IMG/VR virus record: IMGVR_UViG_2737471860_000010
Location: 1-17,563 of that record
Length of the DNA stretch: 17,563 nucleotides
Direction: 5' to 3' (one strand)
DNA from: a virus
Taxonomy: Duplodnaviria > Heunggongvirae > Uroviricota > Caudoviricetes
Notes under the pieces: model-generated
The model's database searches: none
What the model saw: the letters and a program-made list of their open reading frames with translations, nothing else
Told to the model about the DNA's origin: nothing
Translations under genes and position numbers: made by a program
Shown: one piece after another, positions 1 through 16,855 of the stretch
Position numbering within the stretch: position 1 is the first letter of the stretch
Layout: every line of letters starts with the position of its first letter

Positions 1-993
1 CTAATCGATGGACAGTTTATGGACACTTTCAGCCAGCGGATTAAAGTTGATTGCGTCCTGTAAAAAGTCCGGTGAAAAATGCGCATAAGTCATTGTTTGC
101 TGAATAGTGGCATGTCCCAGAATCCGTTGCAGGGTAACGATGTTTCCCCCGTTCATCATGAAATGCGTGGCGAACGTATGACGCATCACATGAGTAGCCT
201 GTCCTTTTGGCAAATCAGGCTTCACCTCCTGGAGGATCTCGCGAAACCGGAGATAATCGACATCGTACAGCGGCCCGGTTCGGCGGGTTTTAATCAGCGA
301 GAGCACGGCATCAGACACCGGAACCGAACGAGACTTCCCGTTCTTGGTGTTGAAGAACGTCACGCGATTACCGACGATATGCTCCCCGCGTAATTCCGCC
401 GCCTCACCCCACCGAGCTCCCGTAGAAAGACACAGAATGGCGACACGACGCGCATCACCTTCGAGTCGCTCAAGAAGCCGATCAATCTCATCATCAGAAA
501 GAAAGGCCATTTCTGTGTTCTGAACTTTCAGTTTGCGTATACCGCGTACAGGGTTCGCGTTGTGAAAAACCTCCGTCTCAATCAATACTGAGAACATCGT
601 TGACAAAACGCACAAGTCACGATTAATGCTGGACGGCATTAATCCGGACTGTAATTTCTCTGACCGATATTCAAGCATAAATTTTCGCGTCATCTGGCTG
701 GCGCGTGGATCTCCCATTTCACGTATCACCTTTTCCAGCCTGACCCTGTAGGAATCTCCGTAAGGCTGATTACGTCCGTCAAGCATCCACCAGTCCTCTA
801 TCAGTTCAGATAACCGCCGCTGATCAGCTGGTTTTGCCTGCCACGGCTTGTCATGAAAATTCTGTAAAACATACCTCTCAAACTCCTGGGCCTTCGATTT
901 CAGGGTGAAGGTTTTTCGAATCCGCTTACCCTCAGCACCCTGCGGTCTTACATCAACCTTATAACGTCCGTCTTTGAGTTGCTTAATCGACAT
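1..993 (-). CDS. int: Tyrosine recombinase / integrase, P2 Int family (330 aa)
   Basis: ORF track 1..1053 (-). Chosen start is the internal ATG (rc 'cat' at 991-993, MSIKQLKDGRYKVDVRP...) preceded by a GGAGGGG Shine-Dalgarno. Product carries blocks typical of P2-type integrases (ARWGEAAELRGEHI, HVMRHTFATHF, TLQRILGH, QQTMTYAHF). Stop codon is at the window edge (1-3). Confidence 0.9.
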   Translation of the reverse strand: MSIKQLKDGRYKVDVRPQGAEGKRIRKTFTLKSKAQEFERYVLQNFHDKPWQAKPADQRRLSELIEDWWMLDGRNQPYGDSYRVRLEKVIREMGDPRASQMTRKFMLEYRSEKLQSGLMPSSINRDLCVLSTMFSVLIETEVFHNANPVRGIRKLKVQNTEMAFLSDDEIDRLLERLEGDARRVAILCLSTGARWGEAAELRGEHIVGNRVTFFNTKNGKSRSVPVSDAVLSLIKTRRTGPLYDVDYLRFREILQEVKPDLPKGQATHVMRHTFATHFMMNGGNIVTLQRILGHATIQQTMTYAHFSPDFLQDAINFNPLAESVHKLSID

Positions 994-1062
994 GATTAGC
1001 CCCTCCAACGGATAAATTAACCAAGCACTCCTTGCGAAATGCAATTCGCTCAATGTGTAGCG

Positions 1063-1404
1063 TCAGCCAGCATTGCGGCCTGATCGGGGTGATTTTTGGA
1101 TAGCGTCGGTTGAAGCCTGATCGCCCTCCGACTGAGAAGAGCCATCAAGAGAGAGAGCCGGGGCTATTTGCCCGGCGGCAGGTAGCGTTTTATCCTTTAA
1201 TAACCACAACATATACTTTTCGAATCGATCTACCTGCAAAACAGTCTCAACGATTTTTGCTCTGGCGCTTTTTTGCCCTGATTCATAGTTCCTTATGGCT
1301 GCTAAAGATAGTCCTGTGATATCAGCAAACTGCTTTTGTGTTAGCCCCTCTGCCTTACGTATTTGACGCAACTTTTCCGCATAGTCTATTGACAAGATAA
1401 CCAT
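1063..1404 (-). CDS. C: Immunity repressor, P2 C-like HTH protein (113 aa)
   Basis: ORF track 1063..1497 (-). Chosen start is the internal ATG at 1402-1404 (MVILSIDYAEKL...) with a GAGAGG SD. HTH segment LTQKQFADITGLSLAAIRNYESG and C-terminal ...KYMLWLL...GQIAPAL resemble the P2 C repressor as recalled. Lies between int and a divergent early operon. Confidence 0.75.
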   Translation of the reverse strand: MVILSIDYAEKLRQIRKAEGLTQKQFADITGLSLAAIRNYESGQKSARAKIVETVLQVDRFEKYMLWLLKDKTLPAAGQIAPALSLDGSSQSEGDQASTDAIQKSPRSGRNAG

Positions 1405-1500
1405 TTGAGTATTAACCTCTCGCACAAAGATAACCGTACGATTATCTTTACAAACCAAAACAAACCATAACAAGGCGCGATAAGCGCACCAACGCAAGAG
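1389..1500. promoter_or_regulatory. Lysogeny-switch region between C and the cox-like gene, with repeated GATAAC motifs
   Basis: TTGACA at 1389-1394 followed at once by AAGATAACC (1394-1402). A second AAGATAACC at 1426-1434 forms a 24-bp near-palindrome (1426-1449) with TTATCTTT. Tandem CAAACCAAAA/CAAACCATAA at 1451-1470. GGATAAC at 1492-1498 lies in the RBS region of the cox-like gene. Confidence 0.5.
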
Positions 1501-1508
1501 GATAACAA

Positions 1509-2036
1509 ATGCGGAACATCATTGCCGATAAAGAGTTATCTGACCTCCCGCCACTTCAAGAAAGTGACGCACCAAGCGACTCCATTAACGCCGCCAACGA
1601 TGGCGAACACCAGGAAAGTAAGCCTCGTCGCACTTACAAAAGAGGAGCAACACTTCGACTAGATGGACCAATCGCCGGACTTTGCTCGCTGGAAAAAGGT
1701 GCTGCATATGTCGGGTTAACAAAACTGGCACTACGTACTGCCGTGGCACGTGGACAAATGCCAGGGCATAAAACACGTACAAACCCGGAAGATGAAGATT
1801 CAGACGGCGTATGGTGGTTTAACGCCAAAGAGTGGGACAAGTTGGCCGACGAACTACCAGAGTGCGAACCACCAGAATGGCACAACTGGAAAAGCTACTG
1901 GACGTATGACCGCCAGAAAAGAAAGTTCTCTCCAGCAGACAAAGAAGACTGCCAAACCGTTAACGGAAAACGGGTTTATATGGGTAGAAGCTCAAAACTG
2001 GAAAAACGCAGGGAACACGAGAGCGATTTATCATAA
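1509..2036 (+). CDS. Cox-like HTH early regulator / excisionase candidate, unusually long (175 aa)
   Basis: ATG at 1509 preceded by AGAGGA SD. Divergent from the repressor gene, the position of cox in P2. Central segment LEKGAAYVGLTKLALRTAVARGQMPG...GVWWFNAKEW resembles the P2 Cox HTH region (recalled), but has ~50 aa N-terminal and ~60 aa C-terminal extensions. Confidence 0.6.
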   Translation: MRNIIADKELSDLPPLQESDAPSDSINAANDGEHQESKPRRTYKRGATLRLDGPIAGLCSLEKGAAYVGLTKLALRTAVARGQMPGHKTRTNPEDEDSDGVWWFNAKEWDKLADELPECEPPEWHNWKSYWTYDRQKRKFSPADKEDCQTVNGKRVYMGRSSKLEKRREHESDLS

Positions 2037-2117
2037 GCAACATCAATAGCGTCGACGCATTCTTTGCACGCCCGAAAGAACAGCGAGATGCATGGTTACT
2101 GTAGCTGGGGCTTTGAA

Positions 2118-2525
2118 ATGACAAACCACGAAGACAAAGCACTACTGGAACGACTGGAAAATCTGAAAAACGAAAAACCACACCAGAAGCTTTTGCTGGT
2201 TTTCCCGGGAAAACCGCAGATTGAAATCAGCGTTGACTACCACGAATTACACAGAACATTCGCTGGTCTGATGGCATTAAAATCAAAGCTTCAGAATGGC
2301 GAAGATTTAAAAGATGTCGCCCTGCGTCCCGACGATGAATACGGCCATTTTTGTCGTGATGATGCAGGAACTATTGGAATGATTTTAGAACCTGCATGCG
2401 GTGTCATGCTCCGTTTCCCTGCAGAAGAAGCCTTTGAACTTTATCGGCAAATTTTAAGTAATGACAACATGGTTATTGAGGTCGGAAATGTGCCAGAGAA
2501 AATCTCCGGCACAGAAGTTAATTAA
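2118..2525 (+). CDS. Hypothetical early protein (135 aa)
   Basis: ORF track 2064..2525. Start set at ATG 2118 (MTNHEDKALLERL...) downstream of a GGGG run; alternative ATG at 2088. No recognisable motif. Confidence 0.5.
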   Translation: MTNHEDKALLERLENLKNEKPHQKLLLVFPGKPQIEISVDYHELHRTFAGLMALKSKLQNGEDLKDVALRPDDEYGHFCRDDAGTIGMILEPACGVMLRFPAEEAFELYRQILSNDNMVIEVGNVPEKISGTEVN

Positions 2526-2704
2526 TCAGGAAAAATATATTTGCTTGCCTGAGGATATTTTTTTAGCGTGAGTTTACGCACTTCGCGCATAAGCTTACGA
2601 ATGGTATTTGATGGTTCTCCTTTATTCGGAGGATTAACCGGCGCTTTCTCTAATACAGAAATTGCCGCATTTAGCGCATCAATAACCTTTTCATCATAGG
2701 ACAT
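2522..2704 (-). CDS. Small hypothetical protein (60 aa), antisense to the early operon
   Basis: ATG (rc 'cat' at 2702-2704) preceded by a strong SD (AAGGAATAAAAT-ATG on the minus strand). Stop overlaps the stop of the convergent 2118..2525 gene by 2 nt. No recognisable motif. Confidence 0.4.
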   Translation of the reverse strand: MSYDEKVIDALNAAISVLEKAPVNPPNKGEPSNTIRKLMREVRKLTLKKYPQASKYIFPD

Positions 2705-2846
2705 ATTTTATTCCTTTGTGGTTAGTAAAACACGCGCCATTCACAGCCCCTTCAAGACTGCAGGCGGTGGAAAAATACCACAAAACCATGCGCCGGGCAT
2801 GGCTAAAACCCGGCACAAATTCGCAACAACAGCGGGATATTTTTGT

Positions 2847-3194
2847 ATGAAGCAACAGCACAATTCTTCACAGCAGCGCTTCCGCAGCAATGCAGAACGC
2901 CACGCTAACCGTTTCTCCACCAGTGCTGCCAGCACAAAACGCTACAGCCTGCAGGAAACACACGCCACACCTGACGGGTATCTGGTTAAACAAACAGGTA
3001 AACACACCTGGCTGATTAATGATGCCGGAATTGTCATACACAGAGGCGCACGCAACCCGATTACCGGAAACACCTGTTATTACCTGACTCGCGGTGATGA
3101 CCAGTTCGGACAGGATTTCACATTACACGAAGCATTGCGCACGGTTGATCGCTTAATTGCAGGTCGTAGTTTTCAACATCCATGGGGGAATTAA
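2847..3194 (+). CDS. Hypothetical early protein (115 aa; start uncertain)
   Basis: ORF track 2718..3194 opens with GTG. In-frame ATGs at 2799 and 2847; neither has a clear SD. No recognisable motif. Confidence 0.4.
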   Translation: MKQQHNSSQQRFRSNAERHANRFSTSAASTKRYSLQETHATPDGYLVKQTGKHTWLINDAGIVIHRGARNPITGNTCYYLTRGDDQFGQDFTLHEALRTVDRLIAGRSFQHPWGN

Positions 3195-3197
3195 TCC

Positions 3198-3452
3198 ATG
3201 ACAACAACGACAAAAGATATGGTAGAGATAGCCTCGGCCTACACTCTTATCATACACCGACTCATAGATAATAATGCCCGTGATGCATTAAATACGGTGA
3301 AACCTTTATCGGAAGCAAAAAGCGATATTATCAGCGGATTAAAGTCACTACAGGAATGCGCACGCTATGCAGGTGATCACGCCGCATACATGGCCATTAA
3401 CGATGCAATTGAGCGCATTGAATCAGGTAAATCATTAAGAGCTTTTGTTTAA
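3198..3452 (+). CDS. Hypothetical early protein (84 aa)
   Basis: ATG 3198 preceded by a GGGGGAA SD-like run; compact spacing with flanking genes. Confidence 0.55.
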   Translation: MTTTTKDMVEIASAYTLIIHRLIDNNARDALNTVKPLSEAKSDIISGLKSLQECARYAGDHAAYMAINDAIERIESGKSLRAFV

Positions 3453-3472
3453 GTATTTTCCGGGGAAATACA

Positions 3473-3715
3473 ATGGACAAAGAATATAAAGTTCTCATTA
3501 ATAAAGCCCTTGAACGCTTTAATTTTCGCCTGAGTATGTCAGGAGTTGCCGCCGAACATGCAGCCAGAGACTCACTGACCAGGGCAATCCGCAGCCTGTA
3601 TGACACGGCTTTTTACGCTGACGATTTAGATGCACTCAATGAGCTGGCTGAGCTTGTTCGTGATGCTGAATGTGGAGTGCATATCAAACCATACGTACTT
3701 GGGAGCGCCGCATGA
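3473..3715 (+). CDS. Hypothetical early protein (80 aa)
   Basis: ATG 3473 preceded by a GGGGAAA SD-like run. Its stop overlaps the next ATG in an ATGA arrangement. Confidence 0.55.
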   Translation: MDKEYKVLINKALERFNFRLSMSGVAAEHAARDSLTRAIRSLYDTAFYADDLDALNELAELVRDAECGVHIKPYVLGSAA

Positions 3716-3837
3716 ATATATTTATTTCCTGGCTGATTCTTATTATTTCCGTGCTCTGCGCGATTGGCATCGTAAGAATTATTGATTCCGTAAAAGATAT
3801 CGAATCATTATTTACTGGCGAAAAACGCCGTAAATAA
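3712..3837 (+). CDS. Small hydrophobic peptide (41 aa), single predicted TM helix
   Basis: Not in the ORF track (under 60 aa). ATG 3712 overlaps the stop of the upstream gene (ATGA). Translation read from sequence: MNIFISWLILIISVLCAIGIVRIIDSVKDIESLFTGEKRRK, a hydrophobic core with a charged tail. Confidence 0.4.
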   Translation: MNIFISWLILIISVLCAIGIVRIIDSVKDIESLFTGEKRRK

Positions 3838-3917
3838 AACGCCAGATTAAACAGGAAAACCAGCAAACAATCCGCACCCGCGGAGGAATTCACTCATCTT
3901 GAAAACGGAGAAAAACA

Positions 3918-4196
3918 ATGTGCAGCAATGAAAAAATCAGCGAAATGTTTACCAGCAAGGAAGTTATCACAGCCACACAAAAAGCGCTGGCAGAACTGAT
4001 TAATGCAAGAAAGAAAGTGCTATCGGAAATGGACTACGATAACAGCCCATCATTTTTTGTCAGCCAGACGTTGCAAATAGAAAACATGCTCATGACGTCA
4101 GCAAACAACATCATCGGCGCACTCCATGCGAAAACCCTCCGCCTTGAGCGCGAACTGGCAGAACTCCGGGCACAGTCAGGTCGCTTTTCAGCATAA
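3918..4196 (+). CDS. Hypothetical early protein (92 aa)
   Basis: ATG 3918 preceded by ACGGAGAAAAACA. Product looks helical; no recognisable motif. Confidence 0.55.
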   Translation: MCSNEKISEMFTSKEVITATQKALAELINARKKVLSEMDYDNSPSFFVSQTLQIENMLMTSANNIIGALHAKTLRLERELAELRAQSGRFSA

Positions 4197-4209
4197 AGGG
4201 GGCGGGACG

Positions 4210-4461
4210 ATGCACAACATATTCACTGCCACAAGGCGAACCATGCTGACGCATTTCACCGATGCCGTGGGCCGCGAATTCATGGTGGAAAGTTATTTGA
4301 TCACAACAACCACGCCGTGCCCGTCAGACGCTGATTATCTCTACATCCATCTGACTGACGGCACACAAATCACAGCAGTCGCAAATACCGTACGCGAAGT
4401 GATGACCATCCGGGGAGCATGGAAATCAGAAAGGCACGGCTATGGAGAACTGCAACCATGA
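4210..4461 (+). CDS. Hypothetical early protein (83 aa)
   Basis: ORF track 4126..4461. Start set at the internal ATG 4210, preceded by AAAGGGGGCGGGACG. Confidence 0.5.
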   Translation: MHNIFTATRRTMLTHFTDAVGREFMVESYLITTTTPCPSDADYLYIHLTDGTQITAVANTVREVMTIRGAWKSERHGYGELQP

Positions 4462-4670
4462 TCAGCAAGTACACCACCAACGCACGCAAACCCGGAAAAG
4501 ATGCACGCCACCACATCGCTGTACTCCGCAATCTGCTGATGGAGGAAATCGACGACTTCACGGCAACGCTGAGCGGTCCTGGCGCACCAGTAACACCGGG
4601 TGAGATCCACCGCGAGCTTAAACGCCGTATTGAAAACGCCATTGATTACACCCTGAACCCGACCGAATAA
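4458..4670 (+). CDS. Hypothetical early protein (70 aa)
   Basis: ORF track 4419..4670. Start set at ATG 4458, which overlaps the upstream stop (ATGA) and follows GGAGAA. Confidence 0.5.
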   Translation: MISKYTTNARKPGKDARHHIAVLRNLLMEEIDDFTATLSGPGAPVTPGEIHRELKRRIENAIDYTLNPTE

Positions 4671-4696
4671 CCGGCACAGGCACGGAGGTTATCACG

Positions 4697-5251
4697 ATGA
4701 TACTTCAACCAATGGGGATACCAGGCAAAGCCCCTGCGCACGTGAAACCATGGACACGGCAGGAAGACGAGATGCTTACCTCGCTTTATCAGGAAAACAG
4801 CACATACCAGATGGCTGAACGAATTCAACGCACCCGCAGCGCAGTTATGCACAGAATTCGTGTTTTACGTGATCGTGGATTAATTGGTCGCAAGAGAAAG
4901 ACGCTGAGCAGAGAAGAAATCAATTTTCTCATCAGAAACCGTCACACCAGAACAGCGCAGGAAATGGCAGTCATGGTGGGATGTACCCGTCGCACAGTAC
5001 AGGAACACCTGAGTAAACGTGGTTACAGACTGCAGAAATGCGGAGATCTGCACCACCTGACCAGATACAGCGATCGCCTGGTGGAACTGGTAACAGAACT
5101 ACGTGATGAACAGTGTATGACATTCGCCGCGATAGCAAAACACATCAATCACACACTGCAAATAAAAGCGACCACTAACACAGCATATCTTCTTTACAGT
5201 CGCCGCCGCACTGCCGACGACATTGTGCTGTACGAACTGCTACCGGACTGA
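4697..5251 (+). CDS. Putative DNA-binding protein with repeated HTH-like segments (184 aa)
   Basis: ATG 4697 preceded by GGAGG. Three helix-turn-helix-like segments (…STYQMAERIQRTRSAVMHRIRVL…, …TAQEMAVMVGCTRRTVQEHL…, …MTFAAIAKHINHTLQIK…). The last ~18 nt of the gene lie inside direct-repeat copy 1. Confidence 0.7.
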   Translation: MILQPMGIPGKAPAHVKPWTRQEDEMLTSLYQENSTYQMAERIQRTRSAVMHRIRVLRDRGLIGRKRKTLSREEINFLIRNRHTRTAQEMAVMVGCTRRTVQEHLSKRGYRLQKCGDLHHLTRYSDRLVELVTELRDEQCMTFAAIAKHINHTLQIKATTNTAYLLYSRRRTADDIVLYELLPD

Positions 5252-5281
5252 GTAATCGCCATGCACACACAAAAACCGCTT
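5234..5281. repeat. Direct repeat copy 1 (~48 bp) upstream of the dam cassette
   Basis: GAACTGCTACCGGACTGAGTAATCGCCATGCACACACAAAAACCGCTT. First 42 nt are identical to copy 2; the remainder matches after a 2-nt difference in the A-run. Confidence 0.9.
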
Positions 5282-5328
5282 TCATGGGATTTGTTGACAC
5301 ACGAAACCTGTAACAAAGAGGCCGCGTT

Positions 5329-6348
5329 ATGAGCAAAGAACTGTTATCCGGCACACCGCTGAAATGGGTGGGCGGGAAAAGCCGCATCATGAACACACTG
5401 AAGGCGCATCTGCCAGAAGCGGACTGCCTGGTTGAGCCGTTCGTGGGTGGCGCATCGGTATTCATGAACACCAGTTACAGCCGATACATCCTGGGTGATT
5501 CCAATGGTGCGCTGATTAATTTCTGTCGGGCAGCACGGGACAACACTGACTGTCTGATCAACGAAGCAAAAGACCTGTTCCTGGAACACAATAACAGGAC
5601 TGACTATCTCGCTATCCGTAACACCTTTAATGCAGAGAATCATGCATTCCTGAGCACGGGAATAAGCGACCGTCGCGAATTACGGCTGGCCGCCATGTTT
5701 TTATACCTCAACCGGCACTGCTTTAATGGCCTGTACCGGGTGAATGAAAAAGGGGATTTTAATGTCCCATTCGGTGGCTACCGGGCTCCCTACTTCCCTG
5801 AACGGGAAATCCGCGCATTTGCAGACAAGGCAAACAGCACCAGAACACTGCTTGTTCATGGCGATTTTCAGAAAACGCTGAACACTGCCAGTCACCTGTT
5901 CAGCATAGGTAGTACGCTTTGCGTGTACTGCGATCCCCCTTACCTGTCATTCAGTGGCCGGGACAATTTCACCGCCTACGAAAAACCCTTCACGAAGGAC
6001 GAACACGTTCGCCTGAGAGCAGCGCTTGACCGTCTTTCACAGGAAACAGGTGGAATGACCAGCATAACCATTTCCGGCTCCGACACACCGGAAGCACGGC
6101 GCATTTATCAGGGCTACCGGATGAACCGCATCCAGGCACCGCGAAGCGTTGGCGCAAAAACCCGAAAACCAGCACCGGAGGTTATCGCCACCCTGAGACA
6201 GTGCGACGCCTGTGGTCGCCATGGCGGCGGCTACTGTCCGGACTGCGGCACGGTGACGGGAGATACAACTTACAGCGCGATGTTTACCTCTTCCACCGCA
6301 GAACAACCGCTGATGCCGTACTCCGTGAACTGCTACCGGACTGAGTAA
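5329..6348 (+). CDS. dam: DNA adenine methyltransferase, Dam family (339 aa) with a C-terminal Cys-rich extension
   Basis: ATG 5329 preceded by AAAGAGG. Strong resemblance to E. coli Dam as recalled: PLKWVGGK, CLVEPFVGGASVF (AdoMet motif), FLYLNRHCFNGLYRVN, DFNVPFGGY, and catalytic DPPY (…VYCDPPYLSF…). C-terminal tail contains CDACGRHGGGYCPDCG. Confidence 0.85.
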   Translation: MSKELLSGTPLKWVGGKSRIMNTLKAHLPEADCLVEPFVGGASVFMNTSYSRYILGDSNGALINFCRAARDNTDCLINEAKDLFLEHNNRTDYLAIRNTFNAENHAFLSTGISDRRELRLAAMFLYLNRHCFNGLYRVNEKGDFNVPFGGYRAPYFPEREIRAFADKANSTRTLLVHGDFQKTLNTASHLFSIGSTLCVYCDPPYLSFSGRDNFTAYEKPFTKDEHVRLRAALDRLSQETGGMTSITISGSDTPEARRIYQGYRMNRIQAPRSVGAKTRKPAPEVIATLRQCDACGRHGGGYCPDCGTVTGDTTYSAMFTSSTAEQPLMPYSVNCYRTE

Positions 6349-6376
6349 TCGCCATGCACACACAAAAAAACCGCTT
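6327..6376. repeat. Direct repeat copy 2 (~50 bp) at the 3' end of dam
   Basis: GAACTGCTACCGGACTGAGTAATCGCCATGCACACACAAAAAAACCGCTT. Same sequence as copy 1 with A7 instead of A5. Confidence 0.9.
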
Positions 6377-6463
6377 GCCATGCCGTAATCAGTCGGGTTA
6401 CATTCCCGCTGCACCTTATAAAACGGGTGCCGGGTTTCGCAGCCTGCTGACTACATACGCGCA

Positions 6464-6484
6464 CAACCGCGCCAGCGGTTTTTT
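6464..6484 (+). terminator. Candidate intrinsic terminator (short GC stem plus T7 run)
   Basis: AACCGC-GCCA-GCGGTT followed by TTTTTTT. The stem is only 4 GC plus 2 AT pairs, so it would be weak. Confidence 0.4.
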
Positions 6485-6664
6485 TGTGCGTACTGCATTG
6501 CCACGTCTTTTTCGCATCAGAATTATGGCGGGGCGTACGGGGCCGACTTCGGTCGGGCCGGGATCGTATGTAGCCGGTACTGCGAACCTCGTACGTCTCG
6601 CCACCCACAGTTTCGCAGCTCTGGATGGTGAGTTTTTAAAACTTACTACATACGAGGCCACACC

Positions 6665-6892
6665 ATGGCAAACCGCAAACAACAGCGCGCCCGCGCTGAG
6701 CGCCTTCACATCCGCACCGAAATCAACCGCAGACTTTTCCGCGCATCACGCGTCGCGCAAATCATGCACATCAATATGCTGCATGAGCGCACTCACGCCC
6801 TGTCAAACCGTTACTGTGCCGCTGTTTTCAGCTACCTGGCGGATGATCTCGCGGAACTGCAGAACCTTATCAACCAGCAACACCACCACTAA
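6665..6892 (+). CDS. Small basic hypothetical protein (75 aa)
   Basis: ATG 6665 preceded by ACGAGG. Ends just before the RBS of the next gene. Coding status is uncertain because it lies in a GC-rich, ORF-dense region with overlapping frames. Confidence 0.35.
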   Translation: MANRKQQRARAERLHIRTEINRRLFRASRVAQIMHINMLHERTHALSNRYCAAVFSYLADDLAELQNLINQQHHH

Positions 6893-6960
6893 ACAACATC
6901 CTGAAGCCATCCCGCACCCGTACGCGGGAGGCTTCCGCACGTCTGTTACCGGAGGTTCAC

Positions 6961-7374
6961 ATGAAGAACGTTAAGGAACTTTCAGATATTCAGGATTTTT
7001 TTAACTGGATGTGGTCGGTGGATCCACACCTCGCCTCCCGCCTCAATGACTGGCATGACTATTACCGCCGCGCCTGTAAACAGGCAGCCAGCAGTATCAC
7101 CACATCAGGTGATTTCTCCTTCACCGTTGATGACCGTTACCGTGTTGACGTCAGAGACCTGAATCACAGCCTGAATCTGGGCCTGTTCCACATCAACGGG
7201 CACGACCACAGCGTAATCAGTTGGTCATCGTCAGAAATGGCGCTCGTACTGGACATGACAACCCACAGCGTGGCAGTGAAAGGGATTAAAACGGCAGAAG
7301 GCTTTATTGACGAATACCGGCGCCTTCTTGTGCTGTACCGTGCCGCATTTCAACGGGCAACTGCCGGGGAGTGA
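6961..7374 (+). CDS. Hypothetical protein immediately upstream of replication gene A (137 aa)
   Basis: ATG 6961 preceded by GGAGG. Stop at 7372-7374, 5 nt before the A start. Confidence 0.65.
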   Translation: MKNVKELSDIQDFFNWMWSVDPHLASRLNDWHDYYRRACKQAASSITTSGDFSFTVDDRYRVDVRDLNHSLNLGLFHINGHDHSVISWSSSEMALVLDMTTHSVAVKGIKTAEGFIDEYRRLLVLYRAAFQRATAGE

Positions 7375-7379
7375 GCGCC

Positions 7380-9908
7380 ATGAACACCAACCGCGAATGG
7401 GCCTGGTCATGGAACGCTCCACTGCCCGTTATCGACCCGGAAACCTTCGGCAGAGCGTTACCACAGAAGCCGACGGCATTACGCAGGGCAATTCAGAGCT
7501 ACATCAACGAAGACATCCGGATTAATGCCCGGCTGGATGAAGAAACCGTCGTCTTCCTGACAAGCACAGAAAAAGGCAGGCAGATTAATTCGCACCTTCA
7601 TCACGACGAAGAGCGGCAGATACGGCTGGAAAAGCTGGCCAGGTACAGACGCGATAACCCACCCACGCTGGTATCCGAGGCCATGGCAGAGCTGCGCGCC
7701 CTTCCGGCCTTTCTCGCCGGACCGTTGATTCGCAGGCTGGCGTTCTTCAGACGCAAACAGGACGATGCCCGTCAGAAAGAACTTAAGAACAACAGCGCAT
7801 ACGCAGCGGATAACTTCGTTCGCCACGGGCTGCGCGCCCGTCTGAAACGCATCAGACAGGTGAATGAACGGTTTGCCACTACAGCATTTAAGGCCACCGC
7901 TGCCCGCGAACGACTGGATGAACTCCTGATACTCCCGCAACTGGAGCGCGACGACATTCAGCGCCTTGCCACCCTGACCGCCACCGCGTTTTCCGCCGCA
8001 CTGGAGCGCGCATTTGATGAGGCCATCAAAAGGACCGGAAAGGGGGATGATGACCTGTACACCTGGCTGCTGACCTACCAGCCGCTGGCACATATGGCGT
8101 TAAAACTGGGTGTCACCCCGCCCTGCTGGCCGTCGCTGGAAATCAGACCCGACCGCCGCACCGCCCCCGACCTGGAACAGGTGCCGGGTGCAGTCATGCG
8201 TCTTTCCTGCGCGAACTGGTGGAACGGTCAGTTAAGACACCTTCGCGACATCTGGCGGGAAGAGCTGTTACGCGCCGCAGGTCTGGTGTCACGTAAGGAG
8301 TCGGTATACATCAGCCATGAAGCGTTACTGGACTGGCGCGAAAAACGCCAGCGCACCCGCGATTTTCTGAAAGCCTGGGATGTCGAGAACGAAGAGGGAG
8401 AGCGGTTCAGCCTTGAGGATATCTACTGGGCCGGACTCGCCAATCCGCGCAACCGTCGCAACGAGATGATGGCCTGCGTCCGGGGAATGGAGCAGGTCGC
8501 CGAAGCGCGCGGCGATGTGGCGTTTTTCGTCACCGTCACCGCCCCTTCCCGTTTTCACAGCGTGAACGATGACGGCAGCCTGAACCCGAAATTCTGCGGG
8601 GCAACGGTACGCGATGCCAGTGATTACCTGGTTTACAGATTTTTCGCTGCCGTCCGCAAGGCCATCAGCAAAGCCGGGCTGGGCTGGTACGGTGTACGCA
8701 CCGTGGAGCCTCACCACGACGGCACACCGCACTGGCACATGCTGGTATTCACCAGTCCGGAAAACGAAGCCCGTATCACTGAAATCATGCGCAACGCCGC
8801 CATCAGGGAGGACCGTGCAGAGCTGGGTGATGATATCTCCCCGCGTTTTAAATGCGAAAAAATCGACCCAGCAAAAGGCACCCCGGCAAGCTATATCGCG
8901 ACCTATATCGGTAAGAACCTGGACGCCAGCGTATTTATGGGGAATGACCCGAAAACCGGCAAACCATACGCAGACAGGGAATCAGGCAAAACAATGGCAG
9001 AAACCGTGGAGAACGCCATCGGCTGGGCGACCCTTCACCGCATCCGCCAGTTCCAGTTCTTCGGTATCCCGCCACGCCAGGTATGGCGCGAACTCCGCCG
9101 TCTTGCCGGGCAGATAGCCCGTAACCCGAAGGCACCACAGCGCCTCGATAATGAAGACATTGACGCCATACTGGCCGCCGCTGATGTGGGATGTTTTGCC
9201 ACCTACATCACCAGGCAGGGTGGTGTACTCATTCCCCGCAACACGTACCTGGTCCGCACCGCATACGAAACCGCCGAAGAGGCCAACGACTACGGCGAAT
9301 TTCCGCAACGTATTTACGGTGTCCGTGCACCGTCACTCGGGGAGCAGTACACCATATGCACCCATCCGGACACCTGGAAACTGGTCAGACGTAAGCCGGA
9401 AGGTGAAGACAGCGCCAGCGAAACTGATTTTGACGTTGAGGGCGACTTTGTCGCCCCTTGGACTCGTGGCAATAACTGTCCCCATGACCAGAATTTAACC
9501 AGTAATGCCACGCCAGAAGGGCAACAGGACAGACGCAGGGAGCAACGACTTACCCTGCCGGAAGGTGATTTAACCGAATGGCTGAGGTCGCTGACACCGG
9601 TACAGAGAAAACAACTCACCCGGCAGTTGAAAAACCCGCCACCTGACACAGAAACCGTGAAAAACGGCGGCATCAGTGCGCCCACTGACGGCGTTCGCGT
9701 GGATGTCGCACTGACAGCAGAGCCACACATCACCGCACAAATCACCTGCGAACTCGATGCACTGGGCGTACAACTGCCTGACGCAGCCATTATTTCCGTG
9801 CGTAACGGGGCCCGTGTTCTCCTGGATGACGGGCGCACCGCGTACTGGAACGACAACACCCGCCGCATTGAGCTCAACCCTGCACAGAAAACGGAGGGGC
9901 CACAATGA
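7380..9908 (+). CDS. A: Rolling-circle replication initiator, P2 gpA family (842 aa)
   Basis: ORF track 7371..9908 opens with GTG; first ATG is 7380, preceded by GGGGAG. HUH-like motif (…TPHWHMLVFT…) and the tandem-tyrosine active-site block (…SYIATYIGKN…) are characteristic of phiX174/P2 A-type initiators. Confidence 0.9.
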   Translation: MNTNREWAWSWNAPLPVIDPETFGRALPQKPTALRRAIQSYINEDIRINARLDEETVVFLTSTEKGRQINSHLHHDEERQIRLEKLARYRRDNPPTLVSEAMAELRALPAFLAGPLIRRLAFFRRKQDDARQKELKNNSAYAADNFVRHGLRARLKRIRQVNERFATTAFKATAARERLDELLILPQLERDDIQRLATLTATAFSAALERAFDEAIKRTGKGDDDLYTWLLTYQPLAHMALKLGVTPPCWPSLEIRPDRRTAPDLEQVPGAVMRLSCANWWNGQLRHLRDIWREELLRAAGLVSRKESVYISHEALLDWREKRQRTRDFLKAWDVENEEGERFSLEDIYWAGLANPRNRRNEMMACVRGMEQVAEARGDVAFFVTVTAPSRFHSVNDDGSLNPKFCGATVRDASDYLVYRFFAAVRKAISKAGLGWYGVRTVEPHHDGTPHWHMLVFTSPENEARITEIMRNAAIREDRAELGDDISPRFKCEKIDPAKGTPASYIATYIGKNLDASVFMGNDPKTGKPYADRESGKTMAETVENAIGWATLHRIRQFQFFGIPPRQVWRELRRLAGQIARNPKAPQRLDNEDIDAILAAADVGCFATYITRQGGVLIPRNTYLVRTAYETAEEANDYGEFPQRIYGVRAPSLGEQYTICTHPDTWKLVRRKPEGEDSASETDFDVEGDFVAPWTRGNNCPHDQNLTSNATPEGQQDRRREQRLTLPEGDLTEWLRSLTPVQRKQLTRQLKNPPPDTETVKNGGISAPTDGVRVDVALTAEPHITAQITCELDALGVQLPDAAIISVRNGARVLLDDGRTAYWNDNTRRIELNPAQKTEGPQ

Positions 9909-10336
9909 CCCGTTTTTACTGCACCATGCAGCGCCAGCGCTTTGACAACATGATGCGCCAGCGCACGCCATTACTGACTCTGAACAACATTGCCACGAGA
10001 CCACAACCCGGCGATGAACTGGAAATCACAGTGGTCAATCCTGACCGCACCACGAAAACCACCATTACAGATATACTCAACAGACGGCCGGGAAATGAAC
10101 ATAAGAGCTGGATTGTCTCAGTTCGTACCCGCCGTTCGCCGGAGGAGTCGGAGCCGTGCACACCTGCAGGGAAAATCATGCAGAAGTACCACGAAGAACA
10201 GGCACACAAACACAACGCAGCACTGGCCAGAACACTGAATGTCGTCAATCGCAAGGCCGCCCTGGCGGGAATGGTCTTTTCACCACAACGCAATTCATTC
10301 GCCAGGCCGACACAACACCGGAGAACACCACAATGA
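9905..10336 (+). CDS. Hypothetical protein translationally coupled to A (143 aa)
   Basis: ATG 9905 overlaps the A stop (ATGA) and follows GGAGGGG. Basic product with no recognisable motif. Confidence 0.6.
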   Translation: MTRFYCTMQRQRFDNMMRQRTPLLTLNNIATRPQPGDELEITVVNPDRTTKTTITDILNRRPGNEHKSWIVSVRTRRSPEESEPCTPAGKIMQKYHEEQAHKHNAALARTLNVVNRKAALAGMVFSPQRNSFARPTQHRRTPQ

Positions 10337-10824
10337 ACGAAGTCGATTATCAGGCGTTGCGTGACACAGCAACGGCAACAGAAAAAGTGGCAACACCAAA
10401 GAAACTTCTGGCATTTCGTATTAAGGCCACACCATCGGTGGTACTGGCTCTCCTGGACGAACGGGACAGGCTCAGGGATTACGTTAACCTGTACGAAGGA
10501 GAAAAGTGGCATTACTTTCAGCTCGCCGGGTCCGAGGCTGAACGTGCAGATAAAGCAGAAAAAGAACTGGGAAAAGCGAAGCTGCGCATCGCTGAGCTGG
10601 AAGAAATCGCGACTGACTATGCGCTGAAATTCCAGAAAGCCCAGGATGCACTAAAGCATGCAGTCTTACTGCACAAAAACACATCAAGGAGCTTTACGGT
10701 TTTCCTGCCAGAAATCAGTGAATACTTCATCGACGATGTGTTTCAGCCTTTACGCTATGAACGGGATATTGAAAAAGCCGTTATCCTGGCAGGTGGTGTG
10801 GTCAAATGGCATAACAAGAAATAA
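10333..10824 (+). CDS. Hypothetical coiled-coil protein (163 aa)
   Basis: ORF track 10156..10824. Start set at ATG 10333, overlapping the upstream stop (ATGA). Central heptad-like region (…AERADKAEKELGKAKLRIAELEEIATDYALKFQKAQDALK…). Confidence 0.6.
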   Translation: MNEVDYQALRDTATATEKVATPKKLLAFRIKATPSVVLALLDERDRLRDYVNLYEGEKWHYFQLAGSEAERADKAEKELGKAKLRIAELEEIATDYALKFQKAQDALKHAVLLHKNTSRSFTVFLPEISEYFIDDVFQPLRYERDIEKAVILAGGVVKWHNKK

Positions 10825-10831
10825 TTAAGAG

Positions 10832-10876
10832 AACCGGGAACAGGTGCGCAAATTCTTTGTGCGCCTGTTCCCGGTT
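10832..10876. terminator. Long hairpin between convergent gene ends (candidate bidirectional terminator)
   Basis: AACCGGGAACAGGTGCGCA / loop AATTCTT / TGCGCCTGTTCCCGGTT. About 19 bp of stem with two G-U pairs, sitting between the stop at 10824 (+) and the stop at 10957 (-). Confidence 0.6.
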
Positions 10877-10956
10877 GGACAAGCAAAGCGCGTCAGAAAA
10901 TGGATGAGCAGAACATGCACAATAAAAGGCATTTACACAGAATCCTAAACAGGCTC

Positions 10957-11583
10957 TCAACGTACGGTTCTTATCCTCCGGATATCCATTCTGACAATCT
11001 GGTCACGAGGGATCCATGTCGCCAGATTGCCAGACTGCTTATCCATTACGTTATCATATTTCATCCATTCACGACTGTTATTATCTCTGTAATGTGTGAC
11101 ATAAAGAGTAATGTCACCATTGTTACCAAGCGTCAGTGGCCCATTTGGTAGCTGTTCAAAATCAGCCGATAAAAGAGAACGTAATACCGAGCCATCTTTC
11201 AGAAATACTAAAACCTCTGTTACAGGAAAATCAGTCTGTTCAAACATCGACTGCCACGCAGAACTACTACTGTCTGACCATGAGATATCATGCTTTCTGA
11301 GGAAGCGGTACATCCATGCTCGTGCATATTTACGCCAGTATGCGCCACTCGCCACAGCATATAAAACCGTTGGAAGTGTAGCCGTCCAGTCATCAACACC
11401 TGCCCATACAAATGCATGGTAAACCATAGCGGAAAACATGCCAAAAATCAGGGTGGAAAACGTTATCTCTGTAGGTTTATGACTATCGTTGATCCCAACA
11501 GTTGATATGAAATAGCCAATATATCCACAGGAAAGCGTGACAAGTGCCTCCCATGGTAAATTCAAAAGAGAAGAGTCCAACAT
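10957..11583 (-). CDS. Membrane protein with 2-3 N-terminal TM helices and a ~110 aa soluble C-terminal domain (208 aa); candidate effector of a cargo system
   Basis: ATG (rc 'cat' 11581-11583) preceded by GAGGGT, 21 nt after the stop of the zinc-finger gene. Hydrophobic segments WEALVTLSCGYIGYFISTVGI and ITFSTLIFGMFSAMVYHAFVWAGV, plus a weaker third. Followed by a long hairpin. Confidence 0.7.
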   Translation of the reverse strand: MLDSSLLNLPWEALVTLSCGYIGYFISTVGINDSHKPTEITFSTLIFGMFSAMVYHAFVWAGVDDWTATLPTVLYAVASGAYWRKYARAWMYRFLRKHDISWSDSSSSAWQSMFEQTDFPVTEVLVFLKDGSVLRSLLSADFEQLPNGPLTLGNNGDITLYVTHYRDNNSREWMKYDNVMDKQSGNLATWIPRDQIVRMDIRRIRTVR

Positions 11584-11604
11584 CAGTTACCCTCATCACC
11601 ACAC

Positions 11605-11862
11605 TCATCCAGCCTGCAGCAATTCCAGCGCCATCTGCTTTTCTTCCGGGCGCATGCGTTCTATCAGTAATTTCAGTACACCGTTATCCAGACCGCTTGG
11701 GACAAGCGTATGAGAATAGGTCAGATTCATCACCCAGGTATGCCCACAGTCAAGCCGGGTACAGCGGTAATATACATCGGCAAAATGGTCCGTTTTCCAT
11801 ACGGTTTTTTCAATAATGGCCACCGAACCACAGCAATGACACCGTGCCTTTTGTCTGCGCAT
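11605..11862 (-). CDS. Ogr/Delta-type zinc-finger protein (85 aa)
   Basis: ORF track 11605..11928. Start set at the internal ATG (rc 'cat' 11860-11862) with a strong SD (GGGAGGTGGAAC-ATG). C-x2-C-x22-C-x4-C spacing (CHCC…YYRCTRLDCGHTW) matches P2 Ogr as recalled. An alternative ATG at 11926-11928 overlaps the Q stop. Confidence 0.65.
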   Translation of the reverse strand: MRRQKARCHCCGSVAIIEKTVWKTDHFADVYYRCTRLDCGHTWVMNLTYSHTLVPSGLDNGVLKLLIERMRPEEKQMALELLQAG

Positions 11863-11927
11863 GTTCCACCTCCCGACAGATTGCTTCGGTCGTGGTGATT
11901 TTAACCGCTCTCGTCCTGTACAGCACA

Positions 11928-12977
11928 TTATCTGCCCTGCTCTTCAAAATTAAGGTCAAACACCACGCGCCCGAGGCGGAGAATATCACGGTCACTGTTG
12001 ATACTTTCCATTATCAGCCGTCGCATGGGGATCACTTCATCACGGTAGTACGCTTCGCGTGATTTGAGCGGATCACCAAGTCCGGCAGTATTGGCTGGAA
12101 TAATGCCAGCCAGCCCTGGCGGGAAACGGTGCGCAACAAGTTGGTCCTGCGCACTGATATTCTTGATATTCAGAAATTCATCTTTGGTACCGGTATCACC
12201 AACAGGAATTACCTTCACCCCCTCAGCATTCCCTCCGGGTATATTAATAAACATGGATTTAAAATTTCCTGCGCCTTTTGACTGTTCAATTTTTTTACGA
12301 AACTCATCCTCGAGCTCAGGCGACATATCAGGATCCGTGGTATATAAAATGTAACCGAGGTGTGCGCCGTTTTTAAAATATTTACGGCGGAACCGGGTGG
12401 CATCCACATTAAGCATGGCGGACTCCATACCATGGATATAGTCCGGAACCCCATATACCTGTTGTTGCGGATCGTAGATGGCAACAAAGACCACTTCATC
12501 AGGTCCATATACCGTGTCATCCATAGCCATCTGCACGATCACCGTTCCACCGTTACTGTTGCGGCGCAGATACAGGGAGGGTAGCGTGACAAGCCTGACC
12601 ACTTTCCCGAAACCATTGCGCACTTTCAGCAGTCCGACATCACCGAATATCAGCAGGTTGGTGACAGCAGCTGTCATTGCCGCGTGACTCATGCCGCCAC
12701 CACTTTTAAATCCCTGCATAATCATATTAACCCGCGCACGTAACACTGCCCCATGATAGGGGGCAATATTGGCCAGTACGGCAAGGTCCATCCGTTCAAC
12801 AGGCGGCTGGTAATAGCCGTTATAACCGTCCCAGAATGTGCCGTTATAACTTCCCCAGGCAGCAACTGGCTCGGGATCACCAAATTCAATCAGGCTCATT
12901 TTTTTGCCTGCTGACTGTCCTTGCGTATTCACTGCGACATCACCTTGCTGCCGGCACTGTTTATTCTTTTTAGTCAT
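11928..12977 (-). CDS. Q: Portal protein, P2 gpQ family (349 aa)
   Basis: ORF track 11928..12983 opens with TTG; first ATG is 12975-12977 (MTKKNKQ…), 8 nt inside the 3' end of P. Length and position (downstream of P, divergent from O-N-M) fit P2 Q. Confidence 0.85.
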   Translation of the reverse strand: MTKKNKQCRQQGDVAVNTQGQSAGKKMSLIEFGDPEPVAAWGSYNGTFWDGYNGYYQPPVERMDLAVLANIAPYHGAVLRARVNMIMQGFKSGGGMSHAAMTAAVTNLLIFGDVGLLKVRNGFGKVVRLVTLPSLYLRRNSNGGTVIVQMAMDDTVYGPDEVVFVAIYDPQQQVYGVPDYIHGMESAMLNVDATRFRRKYFKNGAHLGYILYTTDPDMSPELEDEFRKKIEQSKGAGNFKSMFINIPGGNAEGVKVIPVGDTGTKDEFLNIKNISAQDQLVAHRFPPGLAGIIPANTAGLGDPLKSREAYYRDEVIPMRRLIMESINSDRDILRLGRVVFDLNFEEQGR

Positions 12978-14748
12978 CAGCAAAAACCCACGTTGATTTG
13001 CGTTTATTTTTGTAATTCAGCGGCTCATTACTGAGCGCATGGGCAATAGCGAAAAACACATCCGCATGGCCGGTTTCCTCACTACGTTCTGCCGTAAAGG
13101 TAACTTTGTTGCCACTGCCTGTGGTTTCCTGGCGAATGGCCATGAATGAAGCCGGAATATCCTTTGCCTCTTCATCCCATTCGATGCGCCGGGCATCCAC
13201 CACATCCAGCATTTTCATCACCAGACGATTTTTACTCTCAACGCTGTAATGAATGGCCACGGTTTCACGGCGGGCAAATCCCTGAACAAGTTCATAAACG
13301 CCATACCCGAGCCCGGTGACATCTATCCCGATAAAGGTCATGTTATAGCGGGATTTAATGGCGCGGATACGTTCAGCCATATACTGAAATGACATGCTGC
13401 GCCAGTGATGTTTTTCCAGTACACGAAAGCGTTCCCCTTCGACCAGTGGCGGTGCCACCACCACAAACGTGGCATTATCCCCCCCTCTCGCCGGGTCAAA
13501 ACCGCCCCAGACCTCACGATTACCGAACGGCGCCGGTTCATCAGGATTGAAGTCCTCCCATATTCGGGGGTCAACACCACAACGCTCCAGATCTTCAAAA
13601 CGGAAAATGCTCTCCTTGTCGTCCACGAACTGGCACATAAACAACATCCTGAACGCGGTCTCACTGTATCGTTCGCGCAGTTCGTTGATATCGGCAAGGT
13701 TAAATCCACCGGCAATGGCATCTTCCAGCGTCACCACGTAACGCCACTGCCCGTCAGGACATTCGCGCCCACCGTCACGCAGCTCATCAAAGGACGGGAA
13801 TTCAACCTGTTTACGCTTCGGATCTCCGCGTCGCCATTCATCACCGGACCAGAACGCGTATCCCTGGTGTGTTTTACCGGACGGTGTAGAAAAATAGGTC
13901 AGACGCCACCGCGAGTGTGTGGCCATACCGGAAGCAACCGTATTAAGACGTTCAAAGCCGGGGATCCACAGATATTCATCAATGTACACGTGACCACTGT
14001 TTGACTGTGCGGTGTTACTGTTCGTTGCCAGAAAATACAGCTCAGCCATATTACTTAACCTGACAGGATTACCCTTAATTGCGATCCCAAATTCTTGCTG
14101 TGCAATTTTAACAATATAGGTACGAAAGACTTCCGCCTGACGTTTTGAAGCGGACAGAAATATCTGAGTGTCGCCAGTTAATACAGCATCTTCGAAAGCT
14201 TCAAAGGCAAAATAAAAGGTTGCACCAATCTGACGGGATTTAAGCAAATTACGTACACGGCGAATTTTGTTTTTCCGAAGGTGTAACTGATAAGCGAACA
14301 GTTTTTTAGTAAACGGTTCAAAACTCTCTGCCGTCAGTCCGGAAATATCATTAGCCTTACGTCGGCGTTCTTTTTTACCGCTTTCACTGTTACCACGGGA
14401 TACCGGCGAACTGTCTGCCATCTCAACAGACATATGTTCAATTTCTGCCATTCGTTCTGTATGTCTGTGTCTGGCAGACATCAGTTTCACATGGTGCCCG
14501 ATAAGACGATCAAGTTCATCCCGCTCTTCCTGACTTTTATGTTCACGCTCTGTCAGCGTCATCACACGACGGGCGATCACCTCCTCCACACCTTCGGTAC
14601 TGAGCTGCGTATACCACTCATATTTTGTTGCCCAGTAATAAACAATACGCGGACTGTTAAGCCCCAGCTTTTTTTGTATTTCTTTCGGCGTATACCGTTT
14701 CAGATACAGCGCACGGGCAGCAGCTATCACTTCATCAGAATAAGCCAT
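12970..14748 (-). CDS. P: Terminase large (ATPase) subunit, P2 gpP family (592 aa)
   Basis: ORF track 12970..14892. Start set at the internal ATG (rc 'cat' 14746-14748, MAYSDEVIAAARALYLKRYTPKEIQ…) preceded by ACGGAGGAG. Length matches P2 P; divergent from O. Confidence 0.88.
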   Translation of the reverse strand: MAYSDEVIAAARALYLKRYTPKEIQKKLGLNSPRIVYYWATKYEWYTQLSTEGVEEVIARRVMTLTEREHKSQEERDELDRLIGHHVKLMSARHRHTERMAEIEHMSVEMADSSPVSRGNSESGKKERRRKANDISGLTAESFEPFTKKLFAYQLHLRKNKIRRVRNLLKSRQIGATFYFAFEAFEDAVLTGDTQIFLSASKRQAEVFRTYIVKIAQQEFGIAIKGNPVRLSNMAELYFLATNSNTAQSNSGHVYIDEYLWIPGFERLNTVASGMATHSRWRLTYFSTPSGKTHQGYAFWSGDEWRRGDPKRKQVEFPSFDELRDGGRECPDGQWRYVVTLEDAIAGGFNLADINELRERYSETAFRMLFMCQFVDDKESIFRFEDLERCGVDPRIWEDFNPDEPAPFGNREVWGGFDPARGGDNATFVVVAPPLVEGERFRVLEKHHWRSMSFQYMAERIRAIKSRYNMTFIGIDVTGLGYGVYELVQGFARRETVAIHYSVESKNRLVMKMLDVVDARRIEWDEEAKDIPASFMAIRQETTGSGNKVTFTAERSEETGHADVFFAIAHALSNEPLNYKNKRKSTWVFADD

Positions 14749-14824
14749 AACTCCTCCGTATAAATAAACTTCGACCATTTTCGAAAAAGGTCTTTCTGAA
14801 GACGAACAGCAGAATTCAGTTATT

Positions 14825-14848
14825 TTCGGATATACCGGTTTATCCGAA
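14825..14848. promoter_or_regulatory. Near-perfect 24-bp palindrome in the divergent P/O promoter region
   Basis: TTCGGATATACCGGTTTATCCGAA, 22 of 24 positions symmetric. About 100 bp upstream of the O start and ~77 bp upstream of the P start. Confidence 0.5.
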
Positions 14849-14933
14849 TACAGCAGAAATAAACAGGATGACGCCGGCACAGGATTATTCATCTAATACC
14901 CGCAGTACGGTTTTATCAGTGAATAAATTTCCT

Positions 14934-15806: not shown

Positions 15807-15816
15807 GGATAAAACG

Positions 15817-16845: not shown

Positions 16846-16855
16846 GGGCTGAACC

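Follow-up and report, generated by a model that had tools for sequence, protein, structure and literature searches.

A dam methyltransferase gene between direct repeats in a P2-like prophage: a probable duplicated recombination junction next to an isrK/C4 RNA module

Morons of lambdoid phages (HK97/HK022-type) are accessory transcription units, and in the c4 immunity system of phages P1 and P7 copies of the target lie before and after the RNA gene. In Gifsy-1, read-through of the isrK terminator matters (PMC4825925), and whether phage mosaicism arises by illegitimate or by relaxed homologous recombination is a debate summarised by De Paepe et al. (2014; PMC3945230). Here we analyzed a stretch of 17,563 nucleotides (nt) from a virus record (IMG/VR IMGVR_UViG_2737471860_000010, positions 1 to 17,563; hereafter the window), in which a gene for a Dam methyltransferase (dam) is bracketed by two direct repeats and lies between a helix-turn-helix (HTH) regulator gene and a module encoding the RNAs isrK and C4. 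The window was the early region of a P2-like prophage, its placement in Escherichia coli was derived from the source names of identical proteins, and the group of prophages to which it belongs was P2-like, of the Xuanwuvirus/P88 type, from E. coli. Most likely the repeats represent one recombination junction that was duplicated when a dam fragment was inserted by illegitimate joining.

A preliminary description made from the sequence alone had noted direct repeats of about 48 bp around dam, which end the HTH gene as ...YELLPD and, in another frame, dam as ...VNCYRTE. The two copies (Table 1) measured 48 and 50 nt and were identical except for an A-run of five residues (A5) in copy 1 and seven (A7) in copy 2; 42 nt of unbroken identity (5234-5275 = 6327-6368) were followed by CCGCTT, and the distance from start to start was 1,093 nt. 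The translations of both open reading frames (ORFs) agreed with that description: the HTH ORF (4697-5251) ended in ...DDIVLYELLPD and the dam ORF (5329-6348) in ...PYSVNCYRTE, in a frame differing from the HTH reading. A 42-nt probe with three or fewer mismatches found only these two sites, and two matches were obtained in 0 of 200 dinucleotide-preserving shuffles. Upstream of the perfect repeat, about 30 nt more were similar at about 50% (repeat family D1, 73 nt, 79%). The repeat consisted of the last 18 nt of the HTH gene, with which copy 1 begins, and the entire 30-nt spacer to the isrK promoter. Copy 1 was truncated after the first two T of what single-copy phages have as the isrK -35 hexamer, and copy 2 ended with the first two bases of that hexamer. 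A terminator scan found no terminator-like site in either copy on either strand, by which a candidate minus-strand terminator inside the repeat was rejected. Over 31 distinct segments, conservation rose from approximately 55-70% in the HTH body to 82-87% in the last 45 nt of the HTH gene, and was 100% from the A-tract through the -35 hexamer, where positions 0 to +27 were set by the search pattern.

More than 50 related prophages carried the repeat as a single copy, always with A7, and in them the HTH gene ran directly into isrK. Examples among the comparison loci (numbered with L) were L002 (E. coli OkiPb01677) and L004 (LH50-c), in which a 555-bp HTH homologue was followed by one A7 copy and the isrK promoter. 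With a degenerate 28-nt probe, all 32 of 32 IMG/VR contigs were single-copy, with A7 and then CCGCTTGCCA, and nearly all of these sites were preceded by an HTH homologue of 47-76% protein identity; the single-copy state was seen in a Citrobacter phage as well. Among complete E. coli genomes the contiguous order of HTH gene, linker and isrK was present in at least 19 and the insertion in 0 of 5,426, and the HTH allele of the window was absent from the complete E. coli genomes examined. Locus L023 encoded an HTH protein identical to that of the window, showed 98.8% DNA identity to window positions 3707-5281, and had the same linker allele TAATCGCC with one A7 copy and no dam. An empty site with a single repeat copy, for which the preliminary description had proposed a comparison of related prophages, was thus found even beside an identical HTH protein. 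The existence of such sites indicated that dam is a derived insertion at the ancestral junction between the HTH gene and isrK, as had been supposed. Although derived and confined to one lineage, the filled state is well established: the identical Dam occurred on 18 contigs, 339-amino-acid (aa) versions with the chimeric tail occurred on at least 70 E. coli contigs, and dam was present in 9 of the 10 displayed places having the identical HTH protein.

Downstream of the junction, the identity of L023 to the window was about 88-91%, with 86-89% over most of 6400-6883 and about 70% in replication gene A; from this divergence, L023 is not a direct deletant of the window phage. Between 5282 and 6385, locus L011 matched the window at 100%; past this point it diverged sharply, with another C4 specificity and another gene A. 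As a candidate for a perfectly isogenic filled and empty pair, L011 and L023 were rejected, being 93-96% identical downstream. A mosaic breakpoint was located right after copy 2, at window 6377-6386, and L023 diverged there also. The conserved boundary after copy 2 is reused for module exchange among relatives.

The insert (5282-6291) was a fragment of approximately 1.0 kb of an exo/ParE-like/dam block known from other P2-like E. coli prophages. In L015 and L016 this block contained an exonuclease gene, a ParE-like gene overlapping the start of dam, dam itself and hypothetical genes, and in L003 it was without the ParE-like gene. The window Dam showed 87-92% protein identity with the Dam proteins of these three loci, in which the flanking repeats were missing and dam was accompanied by exo or the ParE-like gene and by hypothetical genes. 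The left joint (5281/5282; a slash marks the joint) read CCGCTT/TCATGG(G) and was blunt, with zero shared bases, so that the insert begins with the final 47 nt of the ParE-like gene; on the recipient map it fell within the isrK -35 hexamer, just past CCGCTT. At the other end, homology to L015 and L016 stopped at 6285-6308. Native dam ran to 6291 (...GATGTTTACCTCT, as in L016), and the right end of the insert lay a few codons short of the native stop. The sequence of the right joint was GTTTACCTCT/TCCACCGC, and the corresponding HTH 3' regions read ...CATCTCT/ACCACCGC... in L002 and ...CACCTCT/ACAACCGC... in L036, giving a microhomology of 4-6 nt (CTCT or ACCTCT). Base 6292 matched neither parent. 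A MAFFT alignment had paired 5296-5328 with the 5' region of isrK, and an origin of the dam leader from isrK was rejected, since in L015 and L016 the stretch corresponding to 5282-5328 belongs to the native ParE-like/dam sequence. Bongo-type prophages of E. coli (L003, 4277-4483; L044) had, downstream of dam, a 68-aa hypothetical gene that ended in an HTH 3' remnant and the same linker; this end is an independent fusion at the same HTH/linker boundary.

What the sequences show directly is the repeat, the two joints, the single-copy empty sites, the context of dam in donor-type prophages and the constancy of A5 and A7 described below. In the proposed course of events, the ancestral order would have been the HTH gene, the 30-nt spacer, the isrK promoter, C4 RNA, the derepression gene and replication gene A. 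The dam fragment of another P2-like prophage would have been joined to this region via two illegitimate crossovers, a blunt one on the left inside the isrK -35 hexamer, and one on the right that led from the last dam codons to the HTH 3' end at the microhomology; on the recipient map the right one would lie approximately 85 nt before the left. Because the right crossover lay upstream of the left one, the HTH 3' end and the spacer would have come to stand on both sides of dam. Template switching, or unequal exchange between two co-resident P2-like genomes, would be possible routes. The recombinant would have kept the HTH ORF whole through copy 1 and the full upstream region of the isrK promoter through copy 2, and it probably survived because both were retained. 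The dam gene would have lost its own stop and gained 18 codons that pass through the HTH remnant out of frame and end in the spacer. The truncated, out-of-frame remnant of the HTH 3' end indicated the polarity of the event as an insertion.

Several observations weigh against a duplicated junction of this kind. The approximately 35 nt before copy 2 shared only about 50% of their bases with the resident HTH gene, whereas the next 48 nt were identical, so that a single-step duplication in one genome is insufficient. The history must include either a second parental HTH allele or a subsequent replacement or gene conversion: the dam::HTH-remnant fusion may have formed in one phage and then been joined to a phage resembling L023, or the upstream HTH gene may have been exchanged afterwards. 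In addition, the dam-bearing loci L020, L025 and L026 carried an L002/L032-like linker allele in copy 2, and their repeats matched at 44 of 48 positions; the perfect identity in the window may be secondary, via short gene conversion, or may be the original state. Neither the true dam donor nor the parental HTH allele of the remnant was among the matches, the best of which were 91.5% for dam and 25 of 34 nt for the remnant, and intermediates with a single junction did not turn up. How many recombination steps took place and in which order, how dam is expressed and whether it can be excised are what we infer from the arrangement.

The reverse course, in which dam would be ancestral and the single-copy phages, or at least L023, would be deletions by homologous recombination between the repeats, draws on the fact that the L023 junction is the exact product predicted for such a deletion, with the same HTH allele, the same linker allele, A7 and the isrK promoter. 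RecA-dependent recombination in E. coli is usually said to need at least about 25 bp, a length that the 42-nt unbroken identity exceeds; a rare RecA-type deletion back to a single copy, with a junction of the L023 type, is plausible. As an account of the single-copy state, however, an ancestral dam is unlikely. The single copy accompanied HTH alleles of 47-76% protein identity and was found in the Citrobacter phage and in all 32 IMG/VR contigs, and Salmonella and E. albertii loci had a single module edge with other genes upstream. The filled state contained truncated foreign pieces, the ParE-like and HTH remnants, which give the direction of the event, and the downstream divergence of L023 given above is that of no direct deletant.

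It is very unlikely that the repeats are two independent functional elements (terminator, UP element or RNA arm) held by selection after both genes. The right 20-27 nt (ATGCACACACAAAAAAACCGCTT) were indeed invariant across P2-like modules and were kept when the upstream gene differed, and this part was complementary to the isrK terminator. The left 28 nt, however, combined the coding end of the HTH gene with a spacer specific to the allele, and dam reads them in another frame, which argues for descent and not for convergence; copy 1 was without the promoter that normally follows the element, its A-tract had decayed to A5 in all relatives, and neither copy had a terminator-like site on either strand. 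The preliminary description had considered that the repeat might prove to be a conserved element, such as a shared terminator, rather than a scar. This applied to the right 20-27 nt, conserved at the edge of the isrK module, and not to the left 28 nt, which were shared by descent. A mobile cassette (integron-like, transposon-like, or a moron with its own signals) using the repeats as recombination sites would accord with a single accessory gene between direct repeats and with the existence of empty sites, but is hardly credible: the insert ends cut through genes, no recombinase or transposase adjoined dam, the motif was duplicated nowhere else (single in 32 of 32 IMG/VR contigs), and dam occurred elsewhere (L003, L015, L016) without the repeats. 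The genes next to dam encoded the HTH regulator, small hypothetical proteins, the derepression protein and gpA, and the sole integrase found in the window was that of the prophage (1-1053). The term "moron-style cassette" used in the preliminary description was abandoned, because dam had no promoter or terminator of its own and no composition shift, and the repeats were absent from its other contexts.

In the dam-bearing assemblies examined, copy 1 always had A5 (19 loci) and copy 2 always had A7 (17 loci), and A7 was present in every single-copy site. The A5 run is a fixed 2-nt loss in the copy no longer preceding the promoter and not a visible slippage polymorphism. The homopolymer had earlier been pointed out as prone to slippage; slippage or phase variation at the A-run was rejected, since the A5/A7 state was constant in every dam-bearing assembly examined. 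Formation of A5 by the crossover itself was also considered, as the donor has CAAAAAC nearby, yet the CCGCTT after the A-run of copy 1 is recipient sequence, so that a separate 2-nt loss is required.

The assignment of the gene to the Dam methyltransferases was confirmed by a match of residues 13-270 to PF02086 (174.1 bits; cut-off 22) and by a match to PHROG 56 DNA methyltransferase (8.6e-86). The closest solved structure was that of E. coli Dam (2g1p, E = 3.5e-50), and DpnM (2dpm) matched at 6e-35. The catalytic DPPY motif (D202, P203, P204 and Y205) was invariant in the Dam alignment, and the C-terminal segment carried CxxC...CxxC. By this similarity, GATC-specific methylation is a putative activity of the window Dam. 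Native Dam homologues ended in FGNH, FTSAHP or FATANT, 15-17 residues sooner than the window Dam, whose tail of 18 residues (STAEQPLMPYSVNCYRTE) was encoded by the out-of-frame HTH remnant with the stop TAA (6346-6348) in the spacer. One DNA sequence is thus read in two frames. A sigma-70 consensus scan of 5250-5330 gave no site for a dam promoter, and a weak or non-canonical promoter is possible. No terminator was found between the dam stop at 6348 and the isrK promoter at 6375, the next one being the isrK terminator at 6465-6480. The G+C content was 0.50-0.59 in dam and 0.48-0.57 in the flanks, without anomaly, and the orientation was that of the early operon. Since dam is without signals of its own, it is most likely co-transcribed with the early operon. 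In the P2-like prophages L028, L030, L035, L036, L039, L043, L047 and L051, a distant Dam (44-47% identical) was encoded about 1 kb upstream of the HTH gene, which indicated that adenine methylases entered the early region repeatedly, at different positions.

Downstream of copy 2, isrK and C4 were recognized at the level of Rfam (Table 1). The isrK terminator was composed of a stem-loop (6465-6480) followed by a U-tract, and a C4 target site lay in isrK at 6451-6459. The C4 loop (6565-6573; CGTATGTAG) was complementary to this site and to 6646-6654 in the ribosome-binding region of the derepression gene, both target sites being CTACATACG. In L011 the loop and both targets had changed together (CTTTGCTAG/CTAGCAAAG), and the three-way covariation was also found in Salmonella, E. 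albertii and 'Vagococcus' loci (L064 to L066). More than 10 C4 specificity alleles were present among P2-like prophages; judged from their sequences, they look like the P1/P7-type heteroimmunity alleles exchanged between otherwise identical prophages. The derepression gene is presumed to be the target of C4 control. Locus L065 (NZ_JBQPOM010000071.1, labelled Vagococcus sp.) contained an enterobacterial P88-type isrK/C4/derepression module with about 81% protein identity, which suggests that this assembly is contaminated or mislabelled. A second promoter-like site (TTGCCA, 17-nt spacer, AATTAT) was present at 6498-6526, ending on the first C4 bases, and C4 may have its own promoter besides read-through from isrK.

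The right part of the repeat formed the left edge of the isrK module. The arm located there and the isrK terminator pair over 21 nt with 90% complementarity (inverted repeat family I1), and the A7 tract occupies positions of about -47 to -41 relative to the start of isrK. P88 and Salmonella, with an SPFH gene upstream, kept only the right part of the repeat (CACAAAAAAACCGCTTGCC), and E. albertii, with a third kind of gene upstream, also kept the right part (ATGCACACACAAAAAAACCGCTTGCC). In the predicted fold of a read-through RNA (6340-6500), a long-range helix replaced the terminator hairpin (-60.9 kcal/mol, z = -4.5); the helix was still predicted with 301 nt of context and in the empty-site locus L023, whereas an RNA beginning at isrK +1 was predicted to fold into the terminator. 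A scan of genome contigs gave three loci only. The invariance of both arms of the helix extended over the 31 distinct P2-like segments and over loci from Salmonella, E. albertii and Citrobacter, so that the helix drew no support from covariation. The arm was missing from lambdoid isrK-C4 modules. A tentative and rather doubtful proposal, built on these predicted folds, is that CACACAAAAAAACCGC (6359-6374) may be a promoter-selective anti-terminator arm. Early transcripts initiated upstream would then hold the arm, which would pair with the 3' half of the isrK terminator and the U-tract, and read-through would reach the C4 and derepression genes and replication gene A; transcripts from the isrK promoter would be without the arm and would end as a short RNA. 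If so, the duplication would have been tolerated since one complete unit of arm plus promoter stayed before isrK. A role of the A7 tract as an UP element is an equally simple reading.

In the remainder of the early region, the HTH homologue in L002 was annotated as SANT/Myb-like, and "derepression protein" was the annotation of homologues of the 6665-6892 product in P88 and E. coli records. In a tblastn search, matches of the derepression protein were confined to Xuanwuvirus-type phages, and a relationship to P4 epsilon is not claimed. A 206-aa ORF at 6354-6974, which extends over isrK, C4 and the derepression gene, was called 'Phage_ASH' (faint) in several public assemblies, and in L023 a 386-aa version of it was called as a protein; this ORF is probably an over-call, as it overlaps two Rfam-level RNAs. 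All features are listed in Table 1.

Table 1. Features of the prophage early region and of the dam insertion, in window coordinates
Feature	Position	Strand	Basis or remarks
Integrase of the prophage	1-1053	minus	
HTH_3 repressor	1063-1497	minus	
HTH/Myb-like DNA-binding gene, 184 aa, intact	4697-5251	+	Pfam HTH_11 and related matches; PHROG 323 transcriptional regulator
Repeat copy 1, 48 nt, A5	5234-5281	+	HTH 3' end (18 nt, stop TGA 5249-5251) and 30-nt spacer
ParE-like 3' remnant, 47 nt	5282-5328	+	Left end of the BLAST homology with L015 and L016 at exactly 5282
dam, 339 aa, D12-class Dam methyltransferase, chimeric 18-aa C-terminal tail	5329-6348	+	Native to 6291
Right joint	6286-6292	+	Microhomology ACCTCT 6286-6291, dam 3' end/HTH 3' regions
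Diverged HTH 3' remnant	6293-6326	+	70-74% to L002/L032-type alleles, about 50% to resident HTH; now Dam tail
Repeat copy 2, 50 nt, A7	6327-6376	+	Remnant HTH end (former stop TGA 6342-6344), dam stop TAA 6346-6348, spacer running into isrK -35 hexamer
Conserved arm ACACACAAAAAAACCGCTTGC, left edge of isrK module	6358-6378	+	Complementary to isrK terminator 3' half and U-tract 6471-6491
isrK promoter-like site (TTGCCA, 18-nt spacer, TACATT)	6375-6404	+	Consensus match only
isrK-family RNA with intrinsic terminator	6411-6485	+	Rfam RF01394, 62.8 bits (gathering 50); terminator scan; covariation
C4 antisense RNA	6521-6608	+	Rfam RF01695, 79.8 bits (gathering 45); three-way covariation
Derepression-protein gene, 75 aa	6665-6892	+	PF25738, 30.7 bits
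Early operon		plus	Last gene is replication gene A, 7371-9908, PF05840
Long ORFs, P2-type packaging and capsid genes	past 10.9 kb		Assigned by size and order

The dam insertion is neither a classic moron nor a mobile cassette; it is a well-resolved but ordinary case of phage mosaicism. It gives a base-level view of the gain of an accessory gene by a temperate phage, with the donor context, the empty site, both joints, the staggered crossovers and the chimeric tail, and for the recombination debate it provides a specific instance of illegitimate joining, beside a boundary that relatives use for homologous module swaps. From direct repeats flanking a phage gene alone, neither a mobile cassette nor a phase-variable switch can be deduced. 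The Dam of this phage is an ordinary orphan enzyme, and its host has GATC methylation of its own; the more interesting lead is next door, in the isrK/C4 RNA-immunity module with its many specificity alleles and its conserved terminator-complementary arm.

Like other phage mosaic joints, those of the window showed a sharp change of ancestry at gene boundaries with truncated remnants, one joint with microhomology and one without, and the conserved flank was reused for crossover in relatives, L011 switching modules 10 nt or less after copy 2. Unlike the usual mosaic joints, the staggered crossovers here would have flanked the insert with about 85 duplicated nt, of which 48-50 are near-perfect, and an empty site of the same lineage and a donor-type context were both available. 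As with morons, dam sat between genes that are adjacent in related phages (L002, L004, L023, 32 IMG/VR contigs and at least 19 genomes), whereas it was without its own promoter, terminator and base-composition shift and had the orientation of the early operon. The protein resembled the orphan Dams of temperate enterobacterial phages (L003, L015, L016) in its intact D12 domain, DPPY motif and CxxC...CxxC, and differed from them in its position after the HTH gene and directly before isrK and in its chimeric 18-aa tail. The module contained Rfam-level isrK and C4 RNAs like the c4-icd-ant immunity system of P1/P7 and IsrK of Gifsy-1, and its C4 loop covaried with two targets, one upstream in isrK and one at the downstream ribosome-binding region; c4 of P1/P7 also has targets on both sides. 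In contrast to P1/P7 and Gifsy-1, the module of the window lay in a P2-like early operon upstream of gene A, where it would control a small 'derepression protein', and, unlike the lambdoid isrK-C4 modules, it possessed an upstream arm complementary to its terminator.

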